A stretch of 25,822 nt of DNA from a virus (lineage: Duplodnaviria; Heunggongvirae; Uroviricota; Caudoviricetes), in IMG/VR virus record IMGVR_UViG_2585427774_000009, positions 1-25,822 of that record; one strand, 5' to 3'. The notes under the pieces were generated by a model. That model did not search any database, was not told the origin of the DNA, and worked only from the letters and a program-made list of their open reading frames with translations. Each line of letters opens with the position of its first letter. Position 1 is the stretch's first letter. Shown here in pieces: positions 1 to 11,442 of this stretch. The translations under genes and the position numbers were made by a program.

Positions 1-933
1 ATGGACAACGACAAAATTGATCAACACAGCGACGAAATTGAAGTTGAGAGCGAAGAAAAAGAGCGCGGCAAAAAAATAGAAATAGATGAAGACCGACTCC
101 CCTCCCGGGCGATGGCAATTCATGAGCATATCCGCCAGGATGGTGAAAAAGAGCTGGAACGCGACGCAATGGCGCTACTGTGGTCAGCCATTGCGGCGGG
201 TCTGTCGATGGGCGCTTCGTTACTGGCAAAAGGGATATTTCATGTCGAACTGGAAGGTGTGCCGGGCAGCTTCTTGCTGGAGAATCTCGGTTATACCTTT
301 GGTTTTATTATCGTCATTATGGCCCGCCAGCAATTATTTACCGAAAATACCGTGACTGCGGTACTACCCGTCATGCAAAAACCGACAATGAGCAACGTCG
401 GCTTACTTATACGGTTATGGGGCGTCGTGCTGCTGGGTAATATTCTCGGGACAGGTATTGCGGCGTGGGCATTTGAATATATGCCTATCTTCAATGAAGA
501 AACTCGCGATGCATTTGTCAAAATCGGCATGGATGTGATGAAGAACACCCCCAGCGAGATGTTTGCCAACGCGATCATTTCCGGCTGGCTGATCGCCACT
601 ATGGTTTGGATGTTTCCTGCAGCGGGTGCGGCAAAGATTGTGGTGATTATATTGATGACCTGGCTTATTGCCCTGGGTGACACCACCCATATCGTGGTCG
701 GTTCTGTTGAAATCCTCTATCTGGTGTTTAACGGTACGCTGCACTGGAGCGATTTCATCTGGCCCTTCGCACTACCTACTTTAGCGGGGAACATCTGCGG
801 CGGCACCTTTATCTTCGCGTTAATGAGTCATGCACAGATTCGTAACGACATGAGCAATAAGCGTAAAGCAGAAGCACGCCAAAAAGCAGAACGTGCGGAA
901 AACATTAAGAAAAATGATAAAAACCCGGCATAA
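1..933 (+). CDS. yfdC: Inner-membrane formate/nitrite-transporter (FNT) family protein YfdC
   Basis: 310-aa ORF beginning at window position 1 with ATG and ending TAA at 931-933; multiple hydrophobic segments; sequence recognised as E. coli YfdC; location immediately upstream of argW matches known E. coli synteny. Confidence 0.9.
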   Translation: MDNDKIDQHSDEIEVESEEKERGKKIEIDEDRLPSRAMAIHEHIRQDGEKELERDAMALLWSAIAAGLSMGASLLAKGIFHVELEGVPGSFLLENLGYTFGFIIVIMARQQLFTENTVTAVLPVMQKPTMSNVGLLIRLWGVVLLGNILGTGIAAWAFEYMPIFNEETRDAFVKIGMDVMKNTPSEMFANAIISGWLIATMVWMFPAAGAAKIVVIILMTWLIALGDTTHIVVGSVEILYLVFNGTLHWSDFIWPFALPTLAGNICGGTFIFALMSHAQIRNDMSNKRKAEARQKAERAENIKKNDKNPA

Positions 934-1008: not shown

Positions 1009-1083
1009 GTCCTCTTAGTTAAATGGATATAACGAGCCCCTCCTAAGGGCTAATTGCAGGTTCGATTCCTGCAGGGGACACCA
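1009..1083 (+). tRNA. argW: tRNA-Arg (argW), 75 nt including the 3' CCA
   Basis: Sequence GTCCTCTTAGTTAAATGGATATAACGAGCCCCTCCTAAGGGCTAATTGCAGGTTCGATTCCTGCAGGGGACACCA read directly; acceptor stem GTCCTCT pairs with AGGGGAC; T-arm GGTTCGATTCC present; recognised as E. coli argW, a known prophage integration site. Confidence 0.9.
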
Positions 1084-1244
1084 TTTATCAGTTCGCTCCC
1101 ATCCGTACCAGTCCGCAAAATCCCCTGAATATCAAGCCTTCCGTAGATTAACAGTTCGTAATGGTTCGCGTCAGATCGTTGACAGCCGCACTCCATGACG
1201 GGTAAAAAGTGGATAAAATAATTTTACCCACCGGATTTTTACCC

Positions 1245-2435
1245 ATGCTCACCGTTAAGCAGATTGAAGCAGCAAAGCCGAAAGAAAAACCATACCGCCT
1301 TCTCGATGGTAATGGCCTGTACCTTTATGTCCCTGTATCAGGGAAAAAGGTATGGCAGCTTCGCTACAAGATTGACGGTAAGGAAAAAATACTGACCGTA
1401 GGAAAATATCCGCTAATGACTTTGCAGGAGGCAAGGGATAAAGCATGGACCGCGAGGAAAGACATCTCGGTTGGCATCGATCCGGTAAAGGCGAAAAAGG
1501 CTTCGTCTAACAACAATTCCTTTAGTGCGATTTACAAGGAATGGTACGAGCACAAGAAGCAAGTCTGGTCAGTAGGCTATGCAACTGAACTTGCCAAAAT
1601 GTTTGATGACGACATTTTACCCATCATCGGCGGTCTTGAGATTCAGGATATTGAGCCGATGCAACTGCTGGAAGTAATCCGCAGATTTGAAAATCGCGGT
1701 GCAATGGAGCGAGCCAACAAAGCCCGCAGAAGATGCGGCGAGGTTTTCCGTTACGCTATTGTCACCGGCAGGGCTAAATATAACCCGGCACCTGACCTTG
1801 CTGACGCCATGAAGGGATACCGCAAGAAGAACTTCCCGTTTCTTCCTGCAGACCAGATCCCGGCATTCAACAAAGCACTGGCAACATTTTCAGGAAGCAT
1901 CGTATCGCTCATTGCGACCAAAGTTTTACGCTACACAGCCCTAAGAACGAAAGAGCTTCGCTCCATGCAATGGAAGAACGTCGATTTTGAAAACAGGATT
2001 ATCACTATCGACGCCAGTGTGATGAAGGGCCGCAAAATTCATGTGGTTCCTATGTCAGACCAGGTAGTTGAACTTCTCACTACGCTAAGCTCAATCACCA
2101 AACCAGTATCAGAGTTTGTTTTTGCCGGGCGCAACGATAAGAAGAAGCCAATCTGCGAGAACGCGGTATTACTTGTGATCAAACGAATCGGCTATGAGGG
2201 TCTGGAAAGCGGTCACGGATTCAGGCATGAATTCAGCACGATTATGAACGAGCACGAATGGCCTGCTGATGCTATTGAAGTGCAACTGGCACATGCCAAC
2301 GGCGGATCTGTACGTGGAATTTACAACCATGCTCAGTATCTCGATAAGCGCAGAGAAATGATGCAGTGGTGGGCGGACTGGCTTGATGAAAAGGTGGGGG
2401 AATGCCACCCATCACACCACCCTGTCATCCTGTAG
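1245..2435 (+). CDS. intS: Tyrosine recombinase, IntS/P4-family prophage integrase
   Basis: ORF track gives 1209..2435 from a GTG; the ATG at 1245 yields MLTVKQIEAAKPKEKPYRLLDGNGLYLYVP, matching the E. coli CPS-53 IntS N-terminus as I recall it; C-terminal region contains the R...H..R...Y-type catalytic segment (GHGFRHEFST...RGIYNHAQY); sits 160 bp downstream of argW. Confidence 0.88.
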   Translation: MLTVKQIEAAKPKEKPYRLLDGNGLYLYVPVSGKKVWQLRYKIDGKEKILTVGKYPLMTLQEARDKAWTARKDISVGIDPVKAKKASSNNNSFSAIYKEWYEHKKQVWSVGYATELAKMFDDDILPIIGGLEIQDIEPMQLLEVIRRFENRGAMERANKARRRCGEVFRYAIVTGRAKYNPAPDLADAMKGYRKKNFPFLPADQIPAFNKALATFSGSIVSLIATKVLRYTALRTKELRSMQWKNVDFENRIITIDASVMKGRKIHVVPMSDQVVELLTTLSSITKPVSEFVFAGRNDKKKPICENAVLLVIKRIGYEGLESGHGFRHEFSTIMNEHEWPADAIEVQLAHANGGSVRGIYNHAQYLDKRREMMQWWADWLDEKVGECHPSHHPVIL

Positions 2436-2729
2436 CGCGCTGTTGATGAAGAACGTCACGCGCCCCAGCACCTCAACTTCCTCCGCCTCCTCCCCTTCGA
2501 TCGCTTCACCATCACCAGTGATTAATGCCCTACCCATTACCCTGGCAAACTGCGTTCTGCCGCCAGATAAAATCAGCAGAACCTGATTCTGTACCAGCCT
2601 GGTGCACGGCTCGATAACGGCAAAGCCGGATGAGGTTTCCAGGATGCGAGTGTCGACGCCAACACCGCAGATTCGCTCCGGAGTTAACCGCTGCTCTACA
2701 TAGTCGCCCGCCGGTGAAGGAAAGCCCAT
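2412..2729 (-). CDS. UmuD'-like (LexA/S24-fold) protein lacking the GDSM protease core; possibly degenerate
   Basis: Starts MGFPSPAGDYVEQRL, i.e. at the position equivalent to the post-cleavage N-terminus of UmuD' (GFPSPA.DYVEQR); the segment where UmuD carries the catalytic G-D-S-M serine is replaced by unrelated sequence (TPERICGVGVDTRILETSSG); the C-terminal part loosely resembles the UmuD dimerisation region. Start codon overlaps the stop of the upstream ORF (TGATG). Confidence 0.5.
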   Translation of the reverse strand: MGFPSPAGDYVEQRLTPERICGVGVDTRILETSSGFAVIEPCTRLVQNQVLLILSGGRTQFARVMGRALITGDGEAIEGEEAEEVEVLGRVTFFINSALQDDRVV

Positions 2730-2968
2730 CAGTGCACCCTCCCCATGTTGCGGAGGATCCAGTAGCGATTATCGCTATGGTCTGTCGTCTTATCTGCGAA
2801 GTCCGGATGATAGTACTTTATCCACTCGTTGGCGTCGGCCTGGCTGAAATGCCAGTGAACCTTTGCCAGCTCCCGAACGAAGTCAGAAGACCTCAGCCAC
2901 TGGTAACCTTTGGGATTAAGCTGAATAGCAGCGTGGAAAGCCGAGTTAATGTCTGATTGGCGGGGCAT
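2729..2968 (-). CDS. Hypothetical 79-aa protein, first gene of a LexA-box-controlled operon (position analogous to impC in impCAB-type operons)
   Basis: ORF with a GAGAGG Shine-Dalgarno 5-6 nt upstream of the ATG at 2968; LexA box 21 bp further upstream; translationally coupled to the UmuD'-like ORF. No homolog recognised from memory. Confidence 0.5.
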   Translation of the reverse strand: MPRQSDINSAFHAAIQLNPKGYQWLRSSDFVRELAKVHWHFSQADANEWIKYYHPDFADKTTDHSDNRYWILRNMGRVH

Positions 2969-2988
2969 GGTGACCTCTCATTTATTAT

Positions 2989-3008
2989 TACTGTGTATCC
3001 ATACAGTA
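2989..3008 (-). promoter_or_regulatory. LexA (SOS) box TACTGTGTATCCATACAGTA
   Basis: Perfect CTGT-N8-ACAG match to the E. coli LexA operator consensus TACTGT(AT)4ACAGTA, read directly at 2989-3008, just upstream of the minus-strand operon starting at 2968. Confidence 0.65.
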
Positions 3009-3270
3009 GTTTTAAAGTGAGTGCAGATCAATGCGGCGACGCCTATCAATAGCGTCCACAGTTATAGAGGAACGGCGAAAGAATAAACAGTAGGGCTGTA
3101 TTGATGAAGAACCCAGGGATCTTTAACGCTCATACTGATCATTTGTCAGGATGTGATTATCAATAAAGCCAGGATAGGATTAATCTCACACACTTAGAGA
3201 TGACCCGACAATAATCGAAACGACAAGAAAAATGTGGTCTCGGTTACAGGATTATCACCTTGGTAAAGGG

Positions 3271-3582
3271 ATGACTACCATGACAAAATATGAAGGAATA
3301 TCGGCCAGAGTTAAACAAGTTACAGTTAATGATTTTGGTAGATATTTCAATAGCATTGAAAATTACAAGAATGGCATTTTTTGCTATATATGCGGTGGTA
3401 ATGACTGGGATTTGCACAGAAGTCCTGATGATAAAGAAAGGCCCGTGATTATCACCTTTCCCATCCCCGATAAAGATGGAATGGGAGTATGGGCCTTTTA
3501 TGTGATGTGCAAAAATTGCGGCGGCATGCATTTTATCAATGCTAATAAAGTTGCTAATTGGTTGGATAACAAAGAAAAATGA
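3271..3582 (+). CDS. Hypothetical small protein with two C-x2-C motifs (putative zinc ribbon)
   Basis: ORF track gives 3232..3582; the more likely start is the ATG at 3271 or 3280 (AAAGGGA Shine-Dalgarno at 3264-3271). Contains CYICGG and CKNCGG about 38 residues apart. Visibly AT-rich coding sequence. Stop overlaps the next start (ATGA at 3579-3582). Confidence 0.55.
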   Translation: MTTMTKYEGISARVKQVTVNDFGRYFNSIENYKNGIFCYICGGNDWDLHRSPDDKERPVIITFPIPDKDGMGVWAFYVMCKNCGGMHFINANKVANWLDNKEK

Positions 3583-4073
3583 TTAACCCTTGCTATGATG
3601 AGAGCATCTTCAATGTTGAAGTAAGGGGTAAATCTAAGCTAAATAGCCACGCCGGTGGTATGATTGAAAATCATAACGGCGACACTATGTTAGTTGCTGA
3701 AACAATCACTATTGATTTTGAGGAGGAAATCGTGACTTCGCAAGAAAATCCGCATCTGAAAATTCCTCTTACTTTCAAATCGGCTATGTGGATGGGTATT
3801 GGTTTCGTTGCTGTTGCGCTAGGTGGAGCTTGGGCCATGTACACCCACTTAGACAACAAACTTGAAACCTATAGATCTGGTACTGAAGCCCGAATTGAGG
3901 CCGCAAGAGCAAGCCTTGATGGCAAGATAGATTCTCTCGGATCAGAAACACGCGCTCATTTTGAAGCGGCTAGAGTGGAATCTAAAGCAGATAATGCCAC
4001 CATAACAACTCAACTACAGACCATCTCAAATAGCCTATCCGAACTAAACGGAAAAGTTTCAAAAGACAAATAA
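3579..4073 (+). CDS. Hypothetical membrane-anchored protein with one predicted TM helix and a helical C-terminal domain
   Basis: 164-aa ORF; central hydrophobic segment MWMGIGFVAVALGGAWAMY; C-terminal Ala/Arg/Glu-rich repeated helical segments (TEARIEAARASLDGKIDSLGSETRAHFEAARVESKAD); translationally coupled to the upstream ORF; followed by a terminator hairpin. Confidence 0.6.
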   Translation: MINPCYDESIFNVEVRGKSKLNSHAGGMIENHNGDTMLVAETITIDFEEEIVTSQENPHLKIPLTFKSAMWMGIGFVAVALGGAWAMYTHLDNKLETYRSGTEARIEAARASLDGKIDSLGSETRAHFEAARVESKADNATITTQLQTISNSLSELNGKVSKDK

Positions 4074-4223: not shown

Positions 4224-6431
4224 TTATTTTGATTCGAGATCCTCAACACGCGCTACCAAATTTTCATACTGCTCTTTCATTCGCTCATAGTTACGGCGCT
4301 GCAGCGCAGCTTCCAGAGCCAGGGCCTCCTCATAACGAATGCCATAGCGGGATCCGGCTGGGGTTTCCAGAACCTGGCTGTAAGTTGGCTCTGCAGGTTC
4401 GGTATATTCCTCAATTACCTCAGTCGGCACCTGCTCGGTATACTCCTCCTCGACATCTTCAAGCTCTGCCTCATAAACAAAAAGCTGTTTGCCTGCCTCG
4501 TCAAGACGCGGAGAACCATCCTCGTTAAAGACAAATACCTGGATAAGCTTAGGTGTCTGATACTCTTCCTGAACTACCCTCTTGATGCGTTCTCCATCTT
4601 CCGCTTCTTCATCCACAAGAATTTCGCGCGTGGCTGTCATCATCACAGGTCGTTTTACTGTACGGGTTTTTGTCACTTCCATCATGCGGCTGACAGTGCG
4701 GGTTTTTGTTACTCGCTCCCCCTCATTGGTCCGCACTGAAATATATTGGTCTTCCCATTCGTCGTAACAGAGGAGCCCGAGACCGAAGCCATCAATGCCA
4801 TGCGATGCAAACACCTCCTCCACGCGCTGCGCAATAAGGCCGAAGTGCCAGCGCGCACCGTCTTCGCCTTTTTGCGCAACCGCATCATCAAACTTAAACC
4901 GCGTGCGCCAGCTGACTTCCTCCCAGGCATCGAGGACCACATCAGGGATCGCTTCCTTAATTGGCTTGTGATTGTCATCGGAGGTGTTAATCGCACCAGT
5001 ACCAAAATAGGCAGTACGTCCTCGATATGAGGCTGAGCCATAATCGAACTGGTTATCGGCGCTCGGGCGCTGGGTGCAGTTATAGGTGACAATCCCGGCT
5101 TTTATCTCATAGTTACCTTGCCCATCTGTTGCACTACCACCGCTAACCACTACGCGAGCGTCAAAAGCAGAGCCAGCCCCACTGGACCGGTATATTGTTT
5201 GCACCGTGCTTGCAATAGTTGGAGACCCTACTGACGTAAACGCCCCTGAGTCTTCTAATTGCAAAGATTTGGTGCTGAGCTTAACCAGGTTGTGGAAAAT
5301 GATGTGGTTCACTTCAACCAACGAACCGAGGGAAAGGACGCGGTCTATTTTTGGGCAGTCGACGGAAAGTACACGGCTGTCTTCACCAAATACTGCCCCG
5401 CCATTCTGCGGGCCAAAGGCAATACCGGTTCGCCAGGTGCAGGCGCTACCCATGTTACCGACGCTAATTGCAGCATCAATTACGTCGCCGCGTTTTGCCT
5501 TGGTGCCGCCGATTTGCAGGCCGGTTCTGATGTTTGAGCTGGCACCCTCCGGAATGCCGACGTTGAATTCAGCCCCCGTGACATTGAGCGTATACATAGC
5601 CCCTGGGGTAAGCGTTCCGTAGAAATTACCACCAAAATAAGCCCCCTTAGCGCCAGCAAGCGATACTCCACCGTCTCCAGTTGAGGAGGTCGCAAAGCCG
5701 GTGACGCCTACATAGTTTCTGTCAGTATTTGTTGCATCAGTCTGACCAAGCTGCTCAAGGATGAATTCAGCAGCGTGGCGGCCGCCTTTACATCCCGCCC
5801 CCCCGAATTTGTGATTCAAGAGGAATCCGTCAACCTTTGTTCCGGGAACCATGTCATCAACAGCATTGAAACGGTCATCGTCAATCCTGATATAATTGAA
5901 CTTGGCCGTGTTGACAGTGAGCCCGCTCCCGGTAATCGGCTCCGCAAGATGAACCCCGATCCCTCGGGTAATATCATCTCCGAATTTCTCTCCTGGCCGC
6001 CCCTGCAGAATTGAAAACTTATCCAGTCCTCGGCTCATTACCCCAGGACCTACTAATGCAGCGCCGCCCAGCGCAGCTAATTCAGCCCTTAACTGGTCTG
6101 GAGCATATTTCAGAACATCAGCAAAATAGAATTGTTGGGTGCCGTATGAATCGCGAATCTCCATGCTGTAATTTTGCACGGTGACGAATTTAACAATCTG
6201 ACCGTTATAAACGGGGAATCCGCCAGCATTTATTCGCAATGGCTGAGGTACTGGAACATGGGTCCCATCTTCATTCTCAATATAAACCTGAATTTGGTTA
6301 GCAGGATTCGTAGGATCTGTATCCACTAGCCCAATAAAGATTTCTCCATTGGCAACAGCCTTAAATGCACGAGCCATAGTAAATGGCTGGCTAGGCATGG
6401 CGATAAGAACATTCGCGGTAATATCTGACAT
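4224..6431 (-). CDS. Tailspike protein: P22-like head-binding N-domain, glycine-rich receptor-binding/depolymerase domain, C-terminal S74-type intramolecular chaperone domain
   Basis: 735-aa ORF; N-terminal about 110 aa (MSDITANV...FKAVANG...[19 protein letters not shown]...LKY.PDQ) matches the P22 gp9 head-binding domain from memory; central Gly/Thr-rich region typical of beta-helix spikes; C-terminal part has a Ser-(x4)-Lys motif (TSDDNHK) and WHFGLIAQ resembling endosialidase-type autoproteolytic chaperone domains; last gene of the late operon as in P22. Confidence 0.85.
4657..4712 (-). repeat. Imperfect 36-bp tandem duplication inside the tailspike C-terminal domain
   Basis: ACTGTACGGGTTTTTGTCAC (4657-4676) and ACAGTGCGGGTTTTTGTTAC (4693-4712) on the plus strand, encoding the duplicated peptide VTKTRTV in [22 protein letters not shown]. 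Confidence 0.5.
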
Positions 6432-6487
6432 TTAATTTGCTCCAGATACAAGGAATCGCCGCAGCATGGCTACGGTGAATTTTGGGC

Positions 6488-6512
6488 ATAAAAAAACCCA
6501 GCCGAAGCTGGG
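6488..6512 (-). terminator. Rho-independent terminator between ant and the tailspike gene
   Basis: Minus-strand RNA would read CCCAGC-UUCG-GCUGGG followed by UUUUUUU (plus-strand A-run 6490-6496, stem 6497-6502/6507-6512); read directly. Confidence 0.6.
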
Positions 6513-6531
6513 TCGTTGCGTTGGTTATCTG

Positions 6532-7434
6532 TCAGTAGTTATGTACTGAAGGAGGTAATTCTTTATTCTTAAGTCTCATCCATGCGGAAAGATTCGTTGG
6601 TCCGTCTGGCTCATTGATATCAACATCTCGTGAGTGATTGATTAAAACGTCTCTCGCTATATCGATAATACGGGAGAACTCATAACCGCAGTCATGACAT
6701 CTGCCGGAATAGTTCGATTGAATTTGTTTCAGCGCCGGATACAGTTCGCGGAATAATGCCTGTGAGCGGTTGGCATAATCCCATAACCATACAAGACTGT
6801 TTGCTTCTTTTGCAGAAAGCTCGTTGGTTTTCTTATCTTGTTTGCCGATAAACTCGCCTTCAAGCACTACCCTGTGGATGTACTCTACTGCTTGCGGTAT
6901 CTGAGATGCATCAAGCTCTTCAATACTTTCCACGTTGAAACGCTGATGAATCATTGCATAAGCTTCTGGGTACATTAGATGCTTTTTGCTGACTAGCATA
7001 TTTACAGCATCACGAAGCGGAGTCCTGTCATCAACAGATGTTTTCTTACGTGCATTTTCTGCCTTTCCCTTCGTCCAGTAGTCATGCAGCACGCTAAAGC
7101 ATTCCTCCTGGTACTGAATCAGTTTATCACGGATGTCAGCACGAACTTTCTCAGGGTTGATGCTGAACAGCCATCCATTTAACTTCTTCAAAGGAAGGCA
7201 GAGTAGCTTACGAAGCTTCCCATCAGCGGCAACCATGTTCATATGAACACAGTTGAATTTGCTAATCTGCTTCATGAGTTTTGTTTGCTGCGTTGACCAG
7301 CTCATTCCAAGGTTTTCAACGATTGGCTTCATCGCAACATATGCAACTCCGGCAGCCATGGCGGTGATAATTTGCTGACCGTTGAATGGTACGTAAGAGG
7401 TGTTCACTGCTTCTAAAATTGCTATACTATTCAT
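6532..7434 (-). CDS. ant: Antirepressor Ant (P22 immI)
   Basis: ORF track gives a 322-aa ORF; the internal start [21 protein letters not shown] matches the P22 Ant N-terminus from memory and gives 300 aa, with a GGAGA Shine-Dalgarno upstream; position downstream of arc. Confidence 0.85.
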
Positions 7435-7502
7435 GTTGGTTTTTCTCCACGGATTTACTGACAACCGAAGCCCTGACTGTTCCCGCAGTTGGGGCTTCAA
7501 CT
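7435..7502 (+). ncRNA. sar: Possible sar-type antisense RNA region (arc-ant intergenic, antisense to the ant ribosome-binding site)
   Basis: Established P22 biology: a small antisense RNA is transcribed opposite to ant across its translation-initiation region. Here the 68-bp arc-ant spacer contains a GAAGCCC...GGGCTTC hairpin. Ends not determined; placed by analogy only. Confidence 0.3.
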
Positions 7503-7664
7503 TTACGCGCCAATGCGCCCTTCCTTCTTAAAGCTTTCCATTACTCTCTGATAAATCTCAGAGTTAACAGACCGACCATTCTCTTCCGCCACCTTGCGGA
7601 CCAAATCCAATACTTCTTTAGGCCACCGCAAATTGAACTGCGGCATCTTGCTCATTCCTTTCAT
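7503..7664 (-). CDS. arc: Arc repressor (ribbon-helix-helix)
   Basis: Internal start of the 74-aa track ORF gives [53 protein letters not shown] (53 aa), which matches P22 Arc as I recall it (one conservative difference possible). Confidence 0.9.
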
Positions 7665-7678
7665 ATTCACCTCACAAT

Positions 7679-7699
7679 ATAGGTCCACCGTGGACCTAT
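7679..7699. promoter_or_regulatory. Mnt operator (Omnt), perfect 21-bp palindrome ATAGGTCCACCGTGGACCTAT
   Basis: Read directly; the core AGGTCCAC(C/G)GTGGACCT equals the published P22 mnt operator; lies between arc (start 7664) and mnt (start 7755), where Pant is expected. Confidence 0.75.
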
Positions 7700-7706
7700 T
7701 GAGAAT

Positions 7707-7727
7707 ATAGTAGAGTGCTTCTATCAT
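7707..7727. promoter_or_regulatory. Arc operator (Oarc)
   Basis: Plus strand reads ATAGTAGAGTGCTTCTATCAT, the reverse complement of the P22 arc operator ATGATAGAAGCACTCTACTAT as I recall it; located in the arc-mnt divergent promoter region. Confidence 0.7.
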
Positions 7728-7754
7728 GTCAATATACTAACTTGGAGTGATGGC

Positions 7755-8006
7755 ATGGCTAGAGATGATCCGCACTTTAACTTCCGTATGCCTATGGAAG
7801 TAAGGGAGAAATTAAAATTCAGGGCGGAGGCGAATGGGAGATCAATGAACTCCGAGTTGTTACAAATCGTCCAAGATGCTCTATCAAAACCATCGCCTGT
7901 GACTGGATATCGCGACGATGCAGAACGACTCGCTGATGAGCAGTCAGAGCTTGTTAAGAAGATGGTGTTTGATACGCTGAAGGATTTGTACAAAAAACCC
8001 ACCTGA
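7755..8006 (+). CDS. mnt: Mnt repressor (ribbon-helix-helix, maintenance of lysogeny)
   Basis: 83-aa ORF MARDDPHFNFRMPMEVREKLKFRAEANGRSMNSELLQIVQDALSKPSPVTGYRDDAERLADEQSELVKKMVFDTLKDLYKKPT, near-identical to P22 Mnt from memory; divergent from arc-ant. Confidence 0.9.
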   Translation: MARDDPHFNFRMPMEVREKLKFRAEANGRSMNSELLQIVQDALSKPSPVTGYRDDAERLADEQSELVKKMVFDTLKDLYKKPT

Positions 8007-8015
8007 CGGTGGGTT
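7992..8015. terminator. Hairpin terminator shared by convergent mnt (+) and the 355-aa gene (-)
   Basis: AAAAAA-CCCACC-TGAC-GGTGGG-TT; the minus-strand transcript would end in a U-run (plus-strand A-run 7992-7997); overlaps the mnt stop codon. Confidence 0.55.
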
Positions 8016-8019
8016 ACTG

Positions 8020-9027
8020 TTACTTGTCTGAATCATCCAGTTCGTCTGTTTTCACATCCTCAAACCTTGGATGCAGGCGATTCATTTTTGCAATAAAATC
8101 TGAATAGTCGTTAGATAGCTTCATAATCGTAACGGTTGATGACAGATGCTCTCTTAATTTTTGATATCCAATATTTGGCGTCAGCCCCTGAAACAACTTT
8201 GTACCTTTTGAGGCCTTTACGTTCTGCTTTTTAAGCTCCTCAAGGATGTTTGGTGCCAATCTCTTGTAGACGATATCATTTGTCAAAACGCCAAAATACT
8301 GAGGCCGGAAGCGGGGATTTTCCGGCGGGTATTCTAAGCCCCTTAACCTGAAAAGCTCTTCATAATAATCAGCAGGAAATGTTGTAATATAAGGTTGAAT
8401 TTCCTTTGCGACAAAGGCCTCGAGTATTTTGGCGAGTGCATCTTTTTCTCTATCTCGCTGGTAACCCGTCGCTTCATCAACAAGCGCTATTATTCCGACT
8501 TTAGCTAATGAGCGCACCAGAATTTCAGCTTTCTTGGCTGTCTCTAACTGGTTTGGCCTGGTGATAGCGCCTGCCTCTCTTGCCTTTAAATAAACATCGC
8601 AGACAAGAGGTATTATGGATGCGTCATAACCTTCCTGGACGGAGCCAGTAATCGTCTTGTATTTGACCTTATTGATCACATCCATAACATCTTGATTTAT
8701 ATATTTTTTAAGGTTTGCAGCATCCATAAAAGCGGGCATATTGATCACCCCCTCTTCTTGAGGTGCTCTACCCCCTCTTTGTGGTCGGCCAAATGCTTTA
8801 AAAACAGAAGCTTGTGATATGATACGCCGTCCATTTTCGAGAACCGCGACATCTAATTCCGCATCACCGATCTTTAACTTTCCCTCATTCGCAGATACGG
8901 GCAATAAAGCTTTTTCTTTTTTTGCGGCAACAGCCTTTCTTGAGGATTCTTTTCTTTGCTCTGCTGTCATTTTTGCCGCGCGTGCCTTACCGCCTTTGGC
9001 CTTCCCACTAACATCATCATTTTTCAT
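8020..9027 (-). CDS. Hypothetical protein with basic Lys/Ala-rich N-terminus and a C-terminal region resembling the P63C-type phage domain
   Basis: ORF track gives 8020..9087 (355 aa); the likely start is the ATG at 9027 or 9033 (MKNDDVSGKAKGGKARAAK...). The IALVDEATGYQRDREKDALAKILEAF segment resembles my recollection of P63C-domain proteins; unverified. Occupies the position where P22 carries sieA-region genes, between gp16 and mnt. Confidence 0.6.
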   Translation of the reverse strand: MKNDDVSGKAKGGKARAAKMTAEQRKESSRKAVAAKKEKALLPVSANEGKLKIGDAELDVAVLENGRRIISQASVFKAFGRPQRGGRAPQEEGVINMPAFMDAANLKKYINQDVMDVINKVKYKTITGSVQEGYDASIIPLVCDVYLKAREAGAITRPNQLETAKKAEILVRSLAKVGIIALVDEATGYQRDREKDALAKILEAFVAKEIQPYITTFPADYYEELFRLRGLEYPPENPRFRPQYFGVLTNDIVYKRLAPNILEELKKQNVKASKGTKLFQGLTPNIGYQKLREHLSSTVTIMKLSNDYSDFIAKMNRLHPRFEDVKTDELDDSDK

Positions 9028-9186: not shown

Positions 9187-9576
9187 GTGAAGCAATTTCT
9201 TACTGCTATGTTCTTATTCATATCTTTTGGGGCTACAGCAGAGTGCTGGGTCGTTGGAGATATGCGCGGAATAAGCTATTCAGAACGAAATAATTTCCAT
9301 CCGGAAGAAGATGGTTTTAGTGGAACATTCATCATTAAGACAAACGGTGAAGATGCCAGCATCACATATTCTGGGACAGATGCGGGCGGCATGGCTTACA
9401 AAGCATTGTCTAAAAACTCCATCATAGGAATCGGCGCGAATGGCGAAACTCAACGCGTTATCGACTCATGGGTAATACATCCAACTGGAACAGTTTTAAT
9501 GTCAAAAACCATTTCCGGTTATGGAAATATGGATTCAACCAAAGCTTTTGTTGGAAAAGTAAAAAGAAAATGTTAG
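9187..9576 (+). CDS. Hypothetical secreted (signal-peptide) small protein, opposite-strand moron
   Basis: GTG start preceded by a strong AAGGAGG Shine-Dalgarno with 6-nt spacing; N-terminus MKQFLTAMFLFISFGATA-E is a typical Sec signal peptide with an A-x-A cleavage site; transcribed against the late operon. Confidence 0.6.
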   Translation: MKQFLTAMFLFISFGATAECWVVGDMRGISYSERNNFHPEEDGFSGTFIIKTNGEDASITYSGTDAGGMAYKALSKNSIIGIGANGETQRVIDSWVIHPTGTVLMSKTISGYGNMDSTKAFVGKVKRKC

Positions 9577-9600: not shown

Positions 9601-11442
9601 TTACTGCTGTGTTGCCTCAGTAGCAAACAGCGGTCTGATGGCATTCGCAGCGTTATTTATCGCTCTTTCATAGGCTGGTGTTCCTGCTTTGGTGTTTGCC
9701 AAACGAAGAAGCATATTCCTTGCTGCTTTGGACTCATACAAGCGCATCATTGCACCAAAACCAGCCTCAAGCCCCATTGATACGCCAAGGGTCGCAGTTG
9801 CGCCAATCGTCCTTATCCTGTTGGCTTGCGATTGCCCCGTCTGAGTTACTACATTTGCGGTGTCTGACCTTGCTGTTTGCTGTAGAACTTCATGAAGAGC
9901 ATCAAGCTCTTTCATGTGCTTTCCAGAAAAAATAGTGTTGTAAATTTCACCGCCTGACTGAGATTTCAGCTTATTAACTTCAGTGATGAACTTGGCTGGA
10001 GAGTCCCCGGCCTTTTCCGCTATTTTGCTGACGTAAGCTGCACGCATAGCATCTTTCCCCTTATCATCCAGTGCGCTCCAGATTCGTTTCACGTCAGATG
10101 GTTTTCTGCTTAATACAACGGTATTTATAAGTTCAGGACTGGCTTCACTGCTTGCCTTGTTGAGCTTGTTGGCAATGTTTTTATTAAGCACCTTATTATA
10201 AACGTTTGCATAATCGGAATTTGCTTTAAGGTATTTTGCTGCGTCTGATGCACCGAGGTTTTTAGCAACTGCGTTACGAAGGTCTTTTGACATTGCATTC
10301 TCTACCATATTGGTAGCTGCTTTTGCCTGGTTGGGGAAGACCATAGCATCTCCCTGAACATTAGATCTAAATGCTGTTCTGTGCTGACGCAAGAGATCAA
10401 ACGTAACATCCAAATCAGTTGCAGGGTTTGCTAATTCTTCACGTAGGTTACGCAAGGATGTAAGCAGGCTTTGATTGGCAGACGTCCCAAGCCGTTCCTG
10501 TCTTGCGATCGCTGTATTCAGAGCATTCATGGTATTTGTGGTATCAACTGCGGCATTACCCATTTTATTGGTGACGTCATTGATAACAGCGCCAGCGGCA
10601 TCCTTCCGCCCCCTTAACGTGGTGGTAAGAGATTTCACCACATCATCAGGGTTGTACTCACCAAAACGGTCAAAATAATTGCTTACCAGTTTACTACGCG
10701 TTGCATATTGCTCCGCTCGCTTTGAGCCTGTCCCGAGCAAAGCACCCTCGGCATCCTGAGTAAGGCCACGAGTGAAAGCATTTTTCGGCGGGATAACATC
10801 AGATGTCATTGGTGTCACGCCCATCGATTCTGATGTGGCAATTTTCTTCGCCACTTCTGGCGCAATATCACCTTTTATAGCCGTTATTCCACGCCCTATT
10901 CCCTTTGCTGCTGCGGAAAGAACACCCTGAGCGGCAAGGTTAACTCCGGCATTTTTAGCTGCATTTTGTGCGAAATCGCCTTTCTGATTTGCGGCCTCTG
11001 CCAGTGATCCAATAGCCATGCTTCCTGCCGTTCCAACTCCTGGAACTAAATACCCGCCAATTGTTTCTCCAGCTTGCGCATAAGGGTCTGTCGGTCGATC
11101 GACTGGACGATAGACATCATCCAATACTTTTGGCCCACCAAGCCCCTGACTGATTGCATTAATCAGACTTGCGCCACCCTGCAATACGTCAAATGGTATG
11201 TTTACCAGACCACGACCAGCCTGTTCTGAAATTTGCCCTGCACTTTGACCACCAGTGAGCCAATCGCCAGCTTGTTGCATTAATGATGGTTCTTCCCGTG
11301 TTGGTGCATTATTGGCCTGATTAACTGTTTGTTGCTGAACAGCCTGACCAGCAAAATACTCATCAATGGCGGTGCCAATATCTTCGGTGCTCGTACCATC
11401 AGGAAAGGTAAATGTCTTACCGTTTGCAGTTACTTTCATCAT
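9601..11442 (-). CDS. Ejection (internal/pilot) protein, P22 gp16-like
   Basis: 613-aa ORF in the P22 gene-16 position and of matching size (P22 gp16 about 609 aa); Ala/Gly/Gln-rich; start overlaps the upstream gene stop. Confidence 0.8.

Follow-up and report, generated by a model that had tools for sequence, protein, structure and literature searches.

A probably complete P22-type immI region in the ant moron slot of a P22-like prophage at argW

The details of promoter occlusion by the Arc and Mnt repressors at immI, the second immunity region of phage P22, are established in the P22 literature. In P22 the region runs mnt-arc-sar-ant (BK000583 14519..15993; X01916), its mechanism has been summarised elsewhere (PMC2629481; PMC7380047; PMC13397905) and the sar antisense RNA has been detected by RNA-seq (PMC13397905). 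Gene content in the 'ant moron' slot varies, ten types having been distinguished in sixteen P22-like genomes (PMC2629481). The deposited phage nearest to the locus described here is ε34, whose immI region (genes 16, 17 and 18 plus sar; EU570103 15036..16510) is 97.3% identical to it over 1.6 kb and was termed 'apparently functional' by its authors (PMC2629481).

The window that we analysed is the whole 25,822-nucleotide stretch of the IMG/VR virus record IMGVR_UViG_2585427774_000009. It very probably contains a complete P22-type immI region, located in the ant moron slot between a gp16-like gene and the tailspike gene of a P22-like prophage that is integrated at argW, near yfdC, in an E. coli-type chromosome. 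Each protein and each site of the P22 system is present, intact, in its place and nearly identical to its P22 counterpart (Table 1). The prophage is placed at the argW site because yfdC, a tRNA-Arg(CCU) gene and the integrase gene are found together at the beginning of the window, which is a prophage end. As a feature, the region is already known, since it represents a textbook system of which identical copies exist in public genomes.

Table 1. Positions of the immI elements and neighbouring features in the window.
Feature	Position	Strand	Details
yfdC	1..933		prophage end
tRNA-Arg, anticodon CCU (argW)	1009..1083		
Tyrosine integrase	1209..2435		
Tailspike, P22 head-binding domain	4224..6431	-	
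Intrinsic terminator past ant	6495..6514	-	GACCCAGCTTCGGCTGGGTT + T-run; terminator scan; position equals that of the annotated ant terminator of P22 and ε34
ant, antirepressor, 300 aa	6532..7434	-	ATG at 7434..7432; Pfam, PHROG and alignment
Psar, candidate promoter	7400..7428	+	-35-like GTGTTC 7400..7405, TG 7420..7421, -10 TATACT 7423..7428; in ant codons 3-12
sar antisense RNA, 68-70 nt (predicted)	7435..7504	+	Rfam; 3′ end from P22 annotation
arc, 53-aa ribbon-helix-helix (RHH) repressor	7503..7664	-	stop codon 7505..7503; directly upstream of ant, same operon
Mnt operator (predicted)	7679..7699	.	inverted repeat ATAGGTCCAC-C-GTGGACCTAT, 10+1+10, 100%; overlaps Pant start region
Pmnt	7699..7727	+	-35 TTGAGA 7699..7704, 17-bp spacer, -10 TATCAT 7722..7727; promoter scan 10/12
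Pant	7704..7732	-	-35 TTGACA 7732..7727, 17-bp spacer, -10 TATATT 7709..7704; promoter scan 11/12
Arc operator (predicted)	7707..7727	.	ATGATAGAAGCACTCTACTAT on the - strand; between Pant -35 and -10, overlaps Pmnt
mnt, 83-aa repressor	7755..8006	+	RHH + C-terminal Mnt domain; divergent from arc-ant; Shine-Dalgarno GGAG 7744..7747
Hairpin terminator	7996..8015	.	AACCCACC-4 nt-GGTGGGTT; overlaps mnt stop codon; T-run on the - strand
P63C-domain protein, 355 aa	8020..9087	-	phrog_2384, unknown function; with the 129-aa ORF fills the P22 sieA/orf59a slot
129-aa ORF	9187..9576	+	phrog_2651 (unknown); signal-peptide-like N-terminal segment; oriented like sieA and mnt
gp16-like ejection gene	9601..11442		

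Alignment of the segment 7435..8006 (572 bp) required no indels against either reference, with 97.7% identity to P22 (BK000583; 13 differences) and 98.4% identity to ε34 (EU570103; 9 differences). All of the elements annotated in P22 were recovered, namely mnt, Pmnt, O-arc, O-mnt, Pant, arc, sar with its terminator, Psar, ant and the ant terminator, and the architecture is the same in each of them. Within the 90-bp control region the only two bases that differ from P22 are 7680 and 7735. The original prediction, which had proposed an intact immI region that would align with that of P22, is upheld as regards collinearity and integrity; mutations of the kind that it had named as contrary evidence do exist if taken literally, but only as single-base changes at 7680 (Mnt operator) and 7405 (Psar). 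Psar itself sits inside ant, and both lie outside the segment 7435..8006 to which that prediction referred.

The three genes are full length, as had been claimed, with products of 300 (Ant), 53 (Arc) and 83 (Mnt) residues that each match P22 in length. Ant contains the Pfam domains P22_AR_N (3.4e-45) and P22_AR_C (1.8e-27), both above the gathering score, carries the PHROG label 'anti-repressor Ant' and shares 84% of its amino acids with P22 Ant and 96% with ε34 Ant, all of equal length. Arc (Pfam Arc, 9.8e-31) agrees with the P22 protein at 52 of its 53 residues, the sole change, R16K, also being present in ε34, and is 98% identical to the protein of either phage. Mnt, which matches both Pfam Arc (3.9e-30) and Repressor_Mnt (7.2e-19), is identical to P22 Mnt at 81 of 83 residues (98%; changes N54D and T82P) and to ε34 Mnt at 82 of 83 (99%). 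Estimates of dN/dS by the Nei-Gojobori method were 0.13-0.20 for ant and 0.04-0.08 for arc, and both genes are under purifying selection. The hairpin at the mnt stop codon is likewise present in ε34, where it is annotated as a Rho-independent terminator.

At the nucleotide level ant is only 83% identical to its P22 counterpart (dS 0.74), compared with 96-99% for arc, mnt and the control region. The first 20 codons encode the same residues in the two phages, divergence begins at residue 21 and is concentrated at residues 21-80. This distribution, together with the dS value, implies a putative recombination joint within ant, and since Ant is only 84% identical to the P22 protein and diverges in residues 21-80, the range of repressors that it recognises may differ from that of P22 Ant.

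Each half-site of the predicted Mnt operator is perfect (GGTCCAC at 7682..7688 and GTGGACC at 7690..7696), and the 21-mer occurs once in the window, compared with an expectation of zero from shuffled sequences. GTGGACC is the best Mnt half-site, and single-base affinities have been measured for this 7-bp half-site (PMC2726951). A perfect 21-bp palindrome identical to the P22 operator had been predicted; the palindrome is indeed perfect, but the sequence is a one-nucleotide variant of that in P22, differing at a single outer base, 7680, which makes ATAGG of the P22 ACAGG and is located two positions beyond the edge of the 7-bp GTGGACC half-site. The P22 operator is a perfect palindrome over only 17 bp, with imperfect flanks, whereas symmetry in the window extends over all 21 bp. 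In ε34, two other outer bases differ (7678 and 7681), so that its operator is less symmetric than that of the window.

Identity of the Arc operator with P22 could be confirmed at 21 of 21 positions of the annotated O-arc, and this 21-mer is likewise found only once in the window, with none expected by chance from shuffles. Promoter scanning and the P22 annotations agree that both operators are situated in the divergent Pant/Pmnt region, where the original prediction had located them. The two promoters overlap face to face, their hexamers are those of P22 and their positions agree with those annotated in X01916 and BK000583. The C-to-T change at 7735, which is found in neither P22 nor ε34, falls approximately at position +2 of the mnt RNA, lies 3 nt upstream of the -35 element of Pant and touches neither a hexamer nor an operator base.

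The arc-ant spacer (7435..7502, 68 bp) with its hairpin had been recognised as the position at which sar is made in P22. An Rfam scan of the whole window returned only two families, a tRNA and the sar RNA (RF00262), the latter matching exactly 7435..7502 on the + strand, scoring 95.6 bits (gathering score, 43; E = 1.2e-19) and covering model positions 1-68 of 68, which include two hairpins. The predicted fold (-29.4 kcal/mol; z = -4.8 relative to shuffles, none of which was equally stable) consists of a 5′ hairpin that exposes an anti-Shine-Dalgarno CUCC at its apex and a 14-bp terminator stem (7467..7498). The RNA is complementary to the ant leader, including its Shine-Dalgarno sequence (GGAG, 7445..7448 of the - strand), and directly borders the start codon of ant at 7434. 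Two positions differ from P22 sar, 7450 and 7482, each of them in a loop, and both the 68-nt sar sequence and Psar are 100% identical to those of ε34. Psar was placed solely by alignment to the GenBank annotations (BK000583 15097..15125; EU570103). It differs from P22 by one base in the annotated -35 hexamer, where GTGTTA has become GTGTTC through a change at 7405 that leaves the residue encoded by codon 10 of ant unaltered, and its -10 element TATACT and the TG upstream are the same as in P22. The base at 7405 is that of ε34 and of the commonest natural allele.

To place these differences among natural alleles, we surveyed at least 120 IMG/VR viral contigs that carry the sar terminator hairpin, comparing control-region alleles by a Hamming-distance scan. 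Among the roughly 120 matches listed, the 29-mer of Psar in the window is the commonest form, being present at 46 loci compared with 5 for the P22 form. The same holds, again among the matches listed, for its 68-nt sar sequence (commonest, 23 loci), for lysine at Arc position 16 (commonest, 37 of 47 loci) and for its Mnt allele, also the commonest. At the 58 listed loci that have a P22-type control region, the O-mnt form of the window is in the majority and that of P22 in the minority, and the T at 7735 is rare, being found at one of the 58 and additionally in two E. coli genomes. We considered whether the departures of Psar and O-mnt from P22 represent decay and rejected this explanation, since at both 7405 and 7680 the window carries the natural majority allele among the matches listed. 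Taken with the low dN/dS values, the prevalence of these alleles makes the locus look maintained rather than decaying.

The two E. coli genomes are those of HZDC01 (NZ_CP118681) and EC102 (NZ_CP196706), whose prophages are 100% identical to the window over 6480..8020 (1.54 kb) and share both the rare T at 7735 and the adjoining P63C-domain gene. The HZDC01 prophage occupies the same argW/yfdC site. These prophages cover only 81% of the whole window (97.2% identity), from which they differ in the tailspike and in the integrase-side genes; HZDC01 has an acyltransferase gene on the integrase side. RefSeq lists only the proteins at the two loci, and neither sar nor the operators.

Of 5426 complete E. 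coli genomes, 104 contain at least 80% of the immI segment, and the segment from sar to the start of mnt reaches the same level in 134. The portal type of the window is found in 217 genomes. The difference between 104 genomes with immI and 217 with the portal type, like the published comparison of P22-like phages (PMC2629481), supports the earlier statement that this region is not universal amongst them. A sequence scan of the GTDB species-representative genomes detected no exact copy of the operator block and a single locus with the exact sar hairpin, so that these representatives are uninformative on the spread of immI. The single locus, in Pectobacterium brasiliense CFBP8736 (L125 5800..6270), has the hairpin beside an antirepressor-like start, followed by a divergent Mnt/Arc-like RHH gene, and contains neither the P22 arc gene nor the P22 operators.

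The order gp16, moron, mnt, arc, ant, tailspike is that of both P22 and ε34. Beyond the gp16-like gene lie head genes and the terminase, and the late-region genes in the window are all long open frames. P22 has sieA and orf59a where the window has other genes, and ε34, which also differs in tailspike and host, has the moron genes gp14 and gp15 instead of the P63C-domain gene and the 129-aa ORF. Comparison of the genes in the sieA slot with the moron genes of ε34 and HK620 showed no similarity. Neither of the two genes matched a PADLOC defence system. Because its orientation is that of sieA and mnt, the 129-aa ORF is possibly expressed from the prophage. In the tailspike, residues 1-113 form a P22 head-binding domain and residues 484-545 a Peptidase_S74 intramolecular-chaperone domain, and an acidic stretch is present at the C-terminal end; the receptor-binding part of the protein differs from those of P22 and ε34, and the corresponding gene of HZDC01 is different. 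None of the ORFs that separate the integrase from the tailspike (2630..4073) matched Pfam or PADLOC.

By analogy with P22, the locus would operate as follows. In a lysogen, Mnt expressed from Pmnt would occupy the 21-bp operator at the start of Pant and keep arc and ant silent. Upon infection, or when Mnt is lost, Pant would fire and both Arc and Ant would be made, Ant then binding and inactivating a c2-type prophage repressor; the immC repressor of this prophage is encoded outside the window. Arc would subsequently bind its operator between the -35 and -10 elements of Pant, overlapping Pmnt, and switch off both promoters. A sar RNA of approximately 68 nt, initiated at Psar within the first codons of ant and ending at the hairpin in the arc-ant spacer, would pair with the ant leader and its Shine-Dalgarno sequence and so block translation of Ant. 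On this basis, we infer that Mnt and Arc bind their sites, that sar is transcribed and that Ant targets the repressor of its own prophage. The locus would then correspond to the functional second immunity region that the original prediction envisaged.

Since immC lies outside the window, an intact immI could nevertheless be decoupled from the prophage that carries it, either because the prophage is defective elsewhere or because its repressor is insensitive to this allele of Ant. The region would then act only in trans on other lambdoid phages, whether resident or incoming, or serve mainly to modulate read-through into the tailspike gene. The divergence of Ant residues 21-80 from P22, with a dS of 0.74 pointing to a recombination joint, is compatible with such an arrangement, as are the documented crosstalk in trans between antirepressors and other prophages in Salmonella (PMC7380047) and the suggestion that the ant moron contributes to expression of the tailspike (PMC2629481). 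On the other hand, the late-region genes within the window are all long open frames, arc and ant are under purifying selection and ε34, a viable temperate phage, carries the same class of Ant allele (96% identity). Considering both sides, we regard decoupling as unlikely.

A quantitative departure from P22, in which the bases at 7405, 7680 and 7735 measurably alter the levels of sar, Mnt or Ant, appears less probable still. Three bases do differ from P22, and that at 7735 is rare (one of 58 IMG/VR loci among the matches listed), but it hits no hexamer or operator base, whereas 7405 and 7680 carry majority natural alleles (among the matches listed), the former in common with ε34. The change at 7680 also falls outside the 7-bp half-site that sets the affinity for Mnt, and Psar retains the core TGnTATACT, which is of the extended -10 type. 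Extended -10 promoters recognised by sigma-70 generally depend little on the -35 element. That immI is a decaying remnant, intact in appearance only, is scarcely credible: degraded arc or ant genes do occur among P22-like phages, HK620 and Scho1 being examples (PMC2629481), but here there are no frameshifts, stops or indels, gene lengths equal those of P22, dN/dS is well below 1 and all of the sites are conserved. A complete immI region, probably coupled to its own prophage, is the reading that we retain.

The survey also revealed how the elements of the region are combined elsewhere. The sar hairpin is present in exact form at approximately 119 IMG/VR loci (L004-L123; among the matches listed), of which only 28 show the full P22 combination found in the window; the Psar core TTGCTATACT is retained in approximately 95 of the 119, also among the matches listed, and across unrelated ant genes. 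At such loci, hairpin and core adjoin no fewer than five further antirepressor N-termini (MKSIAK, MKSIAT, MTSVAI, MSSLAK and others), and on the other side of the hairpin either P22 Arc, other RHH repressors or unrelated small (Cys-rich) proteins are encoded. Pairing in the 5′ stem of sar is kept across the different types of ant leader by compensatory changes in five pairs. We tentatively suggest that the 32-bp sar terminator hairpin and the TGnTATACT core of Psar might form a portable junction; since the core and hairpin are shared and the 5′ stem is maintained by compensation, antisense control of ant would be conserved while the flanking partners are swapped. Should this be so, the window would represent the commonest combination, that of P22, and the proposal closely resembles the mosaicism already known for the ant moron.

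The importance of the finding beyond annotation is small. In sequence, the prophage has all the parts of a second-immunity circuit, among them sar and two operators, which are missed by automatic pipelines, the RefSeq annotation consisting only of an 'Arc family DNA-binding protein', listed twice, and an antirepressor. Among the matches listed, the laboratory P22 alleles (ACAGG in O-mnt, GTGTTA in Psar and arginine at Arc position 16) represent a minority in nature, which advises a small measure of caution when P22 is used as the reference for calling sites 'mutated'. For the biology of its host, the presence of immI means that the prophage would in principle be derepressible through Ant, which could also derepress other lambdoid prophages residing in the same cell.
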